Of a stretch of DNA of 210 nucleotides, positions 1-210 are shown piece after piece. The notes beneath the pieces are model-generated. The model did no database searches, was not told the DNA's origin, and was given only the letters and a program-made list of their open reading frames with translations. Every line of letters begins with the position of its first letter. The first letter of the stretch is position 1. A program made the position numbers and the translations under genes. Source of the stretch: Escherichia coli. Its GTDB lineage: Bacteria; Pseudomonadota; Gammaproteobacteria; Enterobacterales; Enterobacteriaceae. The stretch lies in NCBI RefSeq assembly GCF_003334255.1, contig NZ_QOWU01000282.1; one strand, written 5' to 3'.

Positions 1-45
1 TGCGGCAATAATGTATGTTCCGATGCTGTAAATTTCCCCGGGTAC
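1..45 (-). other. start of non-collagenous region immediately C-terminal to the triple-helix segment (continues beyond + 1)
   Basis: After GRL (+ 46-54) the Gly periodicity is lost: [15 protein letters not shown] has Gly at irregular spacing and is enriched in Ile/Tyr/Val. GC falls to about 47% over + 1-45 compared with about 67% in the repeat. The domain's identity cannot be determined from 15 residues. Confidence 0.5.
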
Positions 46-210
46 CAGCCTTCCGGTTGGCCCTTGTGGTCCCTGTGGTCCGGTTTCACCTGTCGGTCCC
101 TGTGGACCTGTCGGGCCCTGTCTTCCTGTTTCTCCCTGCAAACCTCGTGGCCCCGTTTTACCCGCAGGACCTGCCGGACCAACCGGCCCCGGAACACCCT
201 GTGCCCCCGC
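1..210 (-). CDS. collagen-like triple-helix repeat protein, internal fragment (5' and 3' ends both outside window)
   Basis: Reverse-complement frame with codons at + 208-210, 205-207, ... 1-3 is open for all 70 codons and translates to [70 protein letters not shown]. Gly is at every third position for 18 consecutive triplets, with Pro in 10 of 18 X positions. No in-frame ATG or stop is present, so both ends are truncated by the window. Product family is assigned from the Gly-X-Y signature only; no homology search was possible. Confidence 0.8.
46..210 (-). repeat. Gly-X-Y collagen-like triplet repeat region (18 complete triplets, uninterrupted; continues beyond + 210)
   Basis: Triplets in reading order are [54 protein letters not shown]. 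At the DNA level this appears as imperfect 9-bp/27-bp periodicity on the + strand, e.g. ggtccctgtgg at 68-78 and 95-105, ggcccttgtgg at 59-69 and gggccctgtc at 113-122. GC is about 67% in this segment, driven by GGN/CCN codons. Confidence 0.8.

Follow-up and report, generated by a model that had tools for sequence, protein, structure and literature searches.

A collagen-like tail fiber gene and its collagen/tail boundary

The 210-nt stretch of DNA analyzed here (the window) lies inside the gene of a collagen-like phage tail fiber, in which it covers, on the reverse strand, the end of the second collagen segment (Col2) and the beginning of a non-collagen C-terminal tail (Table 1). Frame 1 of the reverse strand gives a stop-free translation consisting of one Y-position Ala, 18 consecutive Gly-X-Y triplets (GAQ ... 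GPT GRL) and 15 non-collagen residues, with Gly at 18/23 in one phase of the frame as against 2 and 0 in the remaining phases, and with Pro in the X position of 10 of the 18 triplets. This is the sequence pattern of a collagen triple helix, an uninterrupted Gly at every third residue in a Pro-rich context, and it extends over 39 triplets in Col2 as a whole, with matches to PF01391. When the window was shuffled 5,000 times by mononucleotide and all six frames were scored for Gly-X-Y runs, these reached at most 5 triplets, versus the 18 observed. In the DNA of the collagen part, degenerate tandem repeats of 9 and 18 nt are present.

The window is 100% identical to annotated coding sequence in four Escherichia phage genomes (PhiR12_1, PhiR12_2, PhiR12_2_star, and PhiR12_4) and in 13 complete E. 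coli chromosomes, and therefore the reverse frame is part of a real gene; identity to PhiR5_1 is 99%. RefSeq names the gene in those chromosomes either “prophage tail fiber N-terminal domain-containing protein” or “tail fiber protein,” and a 50-mer spanning the collagen/tail boundary is present in 12 IMG/VR viral contigs. No complete ORF lies within the 210 nt, and no RNA family was matched in the gene region on either strand (Rfam). Frame 1 of the forward strand is likewise open for all 70 codons across 1-210, which is the usual antisense by-product of Gly/Pro-rich codons and gives no evidence for a second gene; the remaining frames contain stops.

The collagen/tail boundary falls between bases 45 and 46, between a Leu codon (46-48) and a Val codon (43-45), and the remaining 77 residues of the tail are encoded outside the window, beyond base 1. 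The initial annotation had assigned the boundary to a span of 1-54, of which only 1-45 encodes the 15 tail residues, the rest being the last collagen triplet, GRL. Its reading of a boundary between triple helix and globular domain, with the Gly-X-Y periodicity ending after GRL, is supported by the full gene, where 92 non-collagen residues run to the stop.

In PhiR12_1 the gene encodes 520 aa and directly follows the tail assembly genes K and I and the host-specificity gene J. The side tail fiber gene of lambdoid phages is located after J, and the fiber encoded after J in these lambdoid long-tailed phages is a side tail fiber. The protein consists of two collagen segments around a Phage_fiber_2 domain, preceded by a phage_tail_N domain whose beta-rich part is separated from the first collagen segment (Col1) by only about 45 residues, and in PHROGs it matches tail fiber families (best E=7e-122). 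A tail fiber had been one of the identities suggested from the window itself, and the location directly after J together with the phage_tail_N and Phage_fiber_2 domains bears this out. No published description of the PhiR5/PhiR12 phages was found in the literature.

Table 1. Features of the fiber gene and its surroundings. Coordinates refer to the window, to residues of the 520-aa fiber, or to individual loci (L013, PhiR12_1; L015, GCA_027979845.1 contig JAPMDB010000075; L016, E. coli 99RCEF; L018 and L019, short metagenome contigs).
Feature	Coordinates	Strand	Evidence or remark
End of Col2, 55 residues of the 520-aa fiber	Window 46-210	-	Translation, mapping onto PhiR12_1 gene, shuffle test
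First 15 residues of the 92-aa non-collagen tail	Window 1-45	-	Invariant in 9/9 alleles; predicted beta strand
Boundary codons Leu-Val-Pro-Gly, CTGGTACCCGGGG	Window 36-48	-	Collagen periodicity stops here; junction alignment
Fiber gene of PhiR12_1	L013 6882-8444		Window corresponds to residues 374-443
phage_tail_N (PF08400)	Residues 1-134		Pfam, E=2.4e-42
Col1, 118 aa, one GDPGGPPG interruption	Residues 136-253		Pfam Collagen
Phage_fiber_2 (PF03406)	Residues 260-301		Pfam
Col2, 117 aa	Residues 312-428		Pfam Collagen
Non-collagen tail, 92 aa, then stop codon	Residues 429-520		No Pfam match
Tail residues 16-20 and 62	L013 8211-8225 and 8349-8351		Just beyond window base 1
DUF4376 gene of PhiR12_1	L013 8461-11628		Split by IS21-family element
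Genes of the IS21-family element	L013 8640-9386 and 9401-10942	-	IstA transposase plus IstB helper ATPase
YadA-like trimeric autotransporter gene	L013 12424-13503; L016 8239-9696		Downstream of the fiber-chaperone pair
Chaperone gene with mosaic divergence (example)	L014 5452-6033		Implied recombination breakpoint inside gene
Fragmented tail-gene copy (example)	L016 5783-7282		Pseudogene, strain 99RCEF
IS3-family end (IS1203/IS629-like)	L015 1-78		Abuts tail
Tail - chaperone(1-52) - tail - chaperone	L018 1-641 (P0005)		Probable assembly artifact
Response-regulator gene joined to tail	L019 1-240 (P0004)		Probable assembly artifact

Relation to the EPclC class and to other tail fibers

Collagen-like proteins of E. 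coli prophages have been sorted into the classes EPclA to EPclD (Ghosh et al., 2012, PLoS One 7:e37872, PMC3368898). The EPclC entries in Table 3 of that study include two proteins of strain ED1a, ECED1_2081 (520 aa, collagen segments of 118 and 117) and ECED1_1681 (493 aa, collagen segments of 106 and 102), and ORF-401 of prophage P-EibA is another example of the class (PMC3368898). The fiber described here has identical total and collagen lengths in both cases, namely 520 aa (118+117) in PhiR12_1 and 493 aa (106 and 102) in variants from two IMG/VR loci (L008 and L009). Additionally, both show the order PfN - Col - Pf2 - Col followed by a non-PfC C-terminus, without a long PCoil, and the same GxPGGPxG interruption in the first collagen segment. 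The defining elements of the class are all found: PfN (PF08400), two collagen segments around Pf2 (PF03406), and a C-terminus in which PfC (PF06820) was matched neither in the full-length nor in the tail-only search. Compared by sizes and layout, the two showed no difference, and because of the two exact size matches it is very likely that the fiber belongs to EPclC. The feature in the window is already known as such, being a member of a protein class published in 2012 and annotated as a tail fiber in current genomes, although the C-terminus of EPclC fibers was not characterized in that study (PMC3368898).

The better studied relatives are EPclA and EPclB, the only classes for which a triple-helical conformation has been shown experimentally (PMC3368898). 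EPclA forms dumbbell-shaped trimers, in which the C-terminal PfC domain is responsible for trimerisation and for re-nucleating the collagen helix once it has melted (PMC3368898), and EPclB (ECs1228) was located by immuno-EM at the tail end of phage Sp5, for which it is required for plaque formation (PMC5155283). The PfN anchor of these proteins (e.g., ECs2717, ECs1228/Z1483) is homologous to that of the fiber described here, with 54% identity over residues 1-134, and in both a C-terminal non-collagen domain follows the collagen stalk in the same position. The C-terminal domains themselves are unrelated in sequence (BLASTP E=0.49 between PfC and the tail), and where the PfC fibers have an 89-aa PfC-like ORF downstream, the present fiber has a DUF4376 gene instead.

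Like the Stf/Tfa pair of lambda, the fiber is encoded after J, contains phage_tail_N and Phage_fiber_2 domains, and has a chaperone gene as its immediate downstream neighbor. Unlike lambda Stf, it has a collagen-like stalk; its chaperone belongs to DUF4376 (PF14301) rather than to the Caudo_TAP family (PF02413) of lambda Tfa; and no similarity of its tip to anything with a known function was detected.

Downstream chaperone gene and variation of the tail

The gene that follows the tail matches only DUF4376 (E=1.1e-19), with no match to Caudo_TAP. It starts 16-30 nt past the fiber stop, with a GGAG ribosome-binding site 16 nt past the stop, and it is present immediately downstream of the tail in all 15 loci in which the DNA continues. 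DUF4376 proteins are experimentally supported tail fiber chaperones of Alteromonas phages (PMC7289586, PMC10579305). As in Alteromonas V22 gp26 and A5 (Gonzalez-Serrano et al., 2020, 2023), a cassette of fiber tip and DUF4376 gene is common to different phage morphotypes, whereas no similarity of tip sequence was detected and the V22/A5 fibers have no collagen stalk. Furthermore, the N-terminal ~60 aa of the chaperone are 35-51% identical to genes annotated as “tail fiber component” in PB1-like Pseudomonas phages, Aeromonas phages and other phages.

The same tail and chaperone occur on two N-terminal anchors that are 26% identical to each other. The anchor beginning MTVRISG... is found in J-type long-tailed (siphovirus) phages, and the anchor beginning VSVVVSG... 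in PhiR5_2, where the gene order of major head protein, structural proteins, and fiber is that of 933W/Sp5-like short-tailed phages. The fiber ranges from 493 to 705 aa across loci (with 287- and 426-aa forms in the protein database), and this variation consists wholly of whole triplets in the collagen segments, Col2 alone ranging from 90 to 150 aa. The tail, in contrast to this, is exactly 92 aa in each of the 15 loci where it is complete. Nine distinct alleles agree at 82 of its 92 residues, among them all 15 in the window; amino-acid changes are found in ten codons and purely synonymous differences in another four. Two positions are multi-allelic, position 17 with G/A/V/I and position 62 with I/N/R/K, and these are candidate receptor-contact sites.

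Synonymous divergence showed that the tail and the first third of the chaperone have a common recent history. The pS was 0.025 in the 92 tail codons and 0.018 in chaperone codons 1-60, as compared to 0.28 in chaperone codons 61-180, such that the tail and chaperone codons 1-60 (shared pS about 0.02) are one recently shared, co-inherited block. The mosaic divergence within the chaperone implies a recombination breakpoint inside the chaperone gene. By analogy, the extent of this block agrees with what is seen in the Mu Tfa and Pam3 gp25 structures, where the N-terminal domain of the chaperone binds the fiber tip and trimerisation is driven by the C-terminal domain (PMC9608196). The pooled pN/pS in the same loci was about 1.1 in the tail, 0.46 in chaperone codons 1-60 and 0.23 in the chaperone core of codons 61-180. 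The substitution pattern of the tail is one that diversifying pressure on a small number of exposed contact residues would produce, although it is only suggestive because divergence is very low, counts are small and the pairwise comparisons are non-independent; a pN/pS near 1 at a pS of about 0.025 can also be simply the result of recent mutations not yet purged.

From its position at the end of the fiber, the chaperone linkage, and this substitution pattern, we infer that the tail is the specificity determinant. The main competing account is that the tail is a platform for trimerisation and docking only, with specificity contributed by the DUF4376 protein retained on the tip as a cap or adhesin, an arrangement for which the gp38-type adhesins are a described precedent. 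At synonymous sites the C-terminal 120 codons of the chaperone have diverged roughly tenfold further than the tail, and their pN is also higher (0.064 versus 0.028), so that it is the chaperone that holds the kind of diversity a specificity determinant should have. Moreover, chaperones are kept in mature Ur-lambda and Mu particles, where they contribute to receptor recognition (PMC9608196), and DUF4376 chaperones have been proposed as transient caps (PMC10579305). Against this, the diverged part of the chaperone is under purifying selection by its pN/pS and it is the tail that carries the multi-allelic sites, PhiR12_1 tolerates a chaperone gene split by an insertion sequence, and folding is the role described for the V22-type chaperone. 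On balance we consider a specificity-bearing chaperone unlikely.

Homology, predicted structure and distribution of the tail

The tail matched no Pfam family, either searched alone at E<=10 or within the full protein, and a sequence search of the PDB returned only chance-level matches (a chlorophyll-binding protein, E=0.17). A word-indexed protein search turned up nothing but fragments with 90% or more identity to the tail, and an exhaustive phmmer search of 1.84 billion representative proteins yielded eight near-identical sequences and five weak multi-stretch matches to Ig-like repeat proteins, with no convincing relative beyond the near-identical sequences. The Ig-like repeat proteins were rejected as homologs, and the resemblance was put down to a compositional or strand-turn motif (“DxxGN”), because the tail has no Big-type Pfam domain at E<=10. 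In PHROGs the tail gave a single weak match (phrog_17472, E=3e-4). AF2 models were of low confidence, with a pLDDT of 40 for the monomer (from an alignment of 11 sequences) and 30 for a pseudo-trimer of three linker-joined copies; the sole point common to both is that the tail is predicted to be all-beta, and the monomer places low-confidence strands at positions equivalent to the 15 residues visible in the window.

A collagen helix followed by a C-terminal domain that is beta-rich, as predicted here, is also the arrangement of BclA/C1q-type proteins, and the initial annotation had raised a C1q/TNF-like jelly-roll head, as in Bacillus BclA or eukaryotic C1q, as one possibility for the segment beyond the helix. 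Position and predicted all-beta structure would agree with such a head. The heads of C1q and BclA are roughly 130-140 residues, however, for which the tail is too short, and it carries no C1q/TNF signal in the Pfam and PDB searches described above; the context is furthermore that of a virion and not of a spore or serum protein. A jelly-roll head of this type is thus very unlikely. Still less probable is an intramolecular chaperone domain of the Peptidase_S74 type that is cleaved after fiber assembly, which had also been suggested from the window. The tail does lie at the C-terminus of a trimeric fiber, and intermolecular fiber chaperones structurally resemble intramolecular chaperone domains (PMC10579305, PMC9608196), but neither Peptidase_S74 nor any other Pfam family was matched at E<=10, the tail is short and predicted all-beta, and with a separate chaperone gene behind it in every case, a built-in chaperone would be redundant. 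Finally, the notion that the boundary is a mere kink in a longer collagen helix, or that the ORF stops almost immediately without a folded domain, is refuted to near certainty, since the extended gene contains neither further collagen nor an immediate in-frame stop and the 92 residues without Gly-X-Y periodicity recur at the same length in 15 loci.

Tail DNA was present in 28 of 5,426 complete E. coli genomes, and carrying genomes have it at a median of three places and a maximum of eight. This rare-but-multicopy pattern suggests that recombination has spread the tail among prophages resident in one genome. In several instances, as in strain 99RCEF, the copy is a fragmented pseudogene. Among deposited phages, the tail occurs only in the PhiR5/PhiR12 series.

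Insertions, junctions and neighboring genes

The DUF4376 gene of PhiR12_1 is split after about codon 32 by an element of the IS21 family (Table 1). Despite the split chaperone gene, the deposited record of PhiR12_1 is that of a complete phage genome and names E. coli K-12 MG1655 as the host, so that the fiber-chaperone pair may be dispensable in this phage. The stf gene is likewise dispensable in laboratory lambda.

A YadA-like trimeric autotransporter gene is located downstream of the fiber-chaperone pair in PhiR12_1, where it falls below the NCBIfam cutoff, and in E. coli 99RCEF, where it is annotated “YadA-like family protein.” By analogy with the P-EibA prophages, we take this gene to be a putative Eib-like gene. 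It resembles the Eib genes of P-Eib prophages, whose products bind immunoglobulin; one P-Eib prophage carries an EPclC fiber (Ghosh et al., 2012, PMC3368898).

In three loci, other sequence abuts the tail close to the collagen/tail boundary. In L015, an IS3-family end (IS1203/IS629-like) abuts the tail 1 nt before the boundary Leu codon, and P2-like tail genes (gpU, tape measure, gpE, tube) lie convergent 35 nt past the chaperone gene. This locus was considered as a tip grafted onto a different shaft at the boundary and was rejected as such, the upstream 78 nt being the IS3-family end, which is found in thousands of genomes. In L018 the order is tail - chaperone(1-52) - tail - chaperone, with a CCGG(G/T)GAAATT microhomology at the join, and L019 joins a Firmicutes-like response-regulator gene to the tail between ...ATA and CCCGGGGAAATT; as these two junctions are each found on a single short contig, both are probably assembly artifacts. 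The break points of the IS3-family insertion, L018 and L019 all lie within a few bases of the boundary.

The boundary codons CTGGTACCCGGGG contain overlapping KpnI (GGTACC) and SmaI (CCCGGG) palindromes, and the 12-mer GGTACCCGGGGA of the boundary is presumably also present in the pUC polylinker. The 12-mer is natural because it occurs in all prophage copies, and it could give rise to spurious matches in vector screening or to chimeric joins.

Proposed role of the tail and implications

Taken together, we consider it likely that the window captures the junction between Col2 and the tip of an EPclC-class fiber of temperate E. coli phages, the tip being a chaperone-assisted, trimerising and receptor-binding domain. 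Three all-beta tails would fold into a trimeric knob, thereby bringing the three chains into register at their C-termini, with the product of the DUF4376 gene helping the tail to fold and its N-terminal part gripping the tip. The knob would then set the one-residue stagger and nucleate the C-to-N zippering of the 117-aa Gly-X-Y triple helix, as is the case for PfC, and in the virion it would form the distal, host-contacting end of the fiber. What the sequences establish is which gene this is, how its domains are arranged, where the boundary lies, and that the chaperone gene is strictly linked to the tail, with its N-terminal part inherited together with it; trimerisation by the 92-aa tail, nucleation of the helix, and receptor binding are what we infer. 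If host range were set by the tail alone, one would not expect it to be so much less diverse than the C-terminal two-thirds of the chaperone.

A more far-reaching proposal, which we offer tentatively and as possible rather than probable, is that the tail is a new receptor-binding fold restricted to E. coli, in which a small set of hypervariable positions at the surface (17, 20, and 62 of the tail) would tune host range, and which would move as a minimal cassette for specificity with the tip-gripping N-terminus of the chaperone between long- and short-tailed temperate phages.

Definition of the fold and the receptor of the tip would fill a small gap and would not change the understanding of tail fiber function. 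The tail could also serve as a compact trimerising cap for engineered collagen or for retargeted fibers. Collagen-like fibers of this kind, which are carried by temperate phages of both pathogenic and commensal E. coli, probably have a part in determining the strains to which those phages adsorb, and hence in the spread of prophage-borne genes such as the YadA-like gene found here and the Stx genes of related phages.
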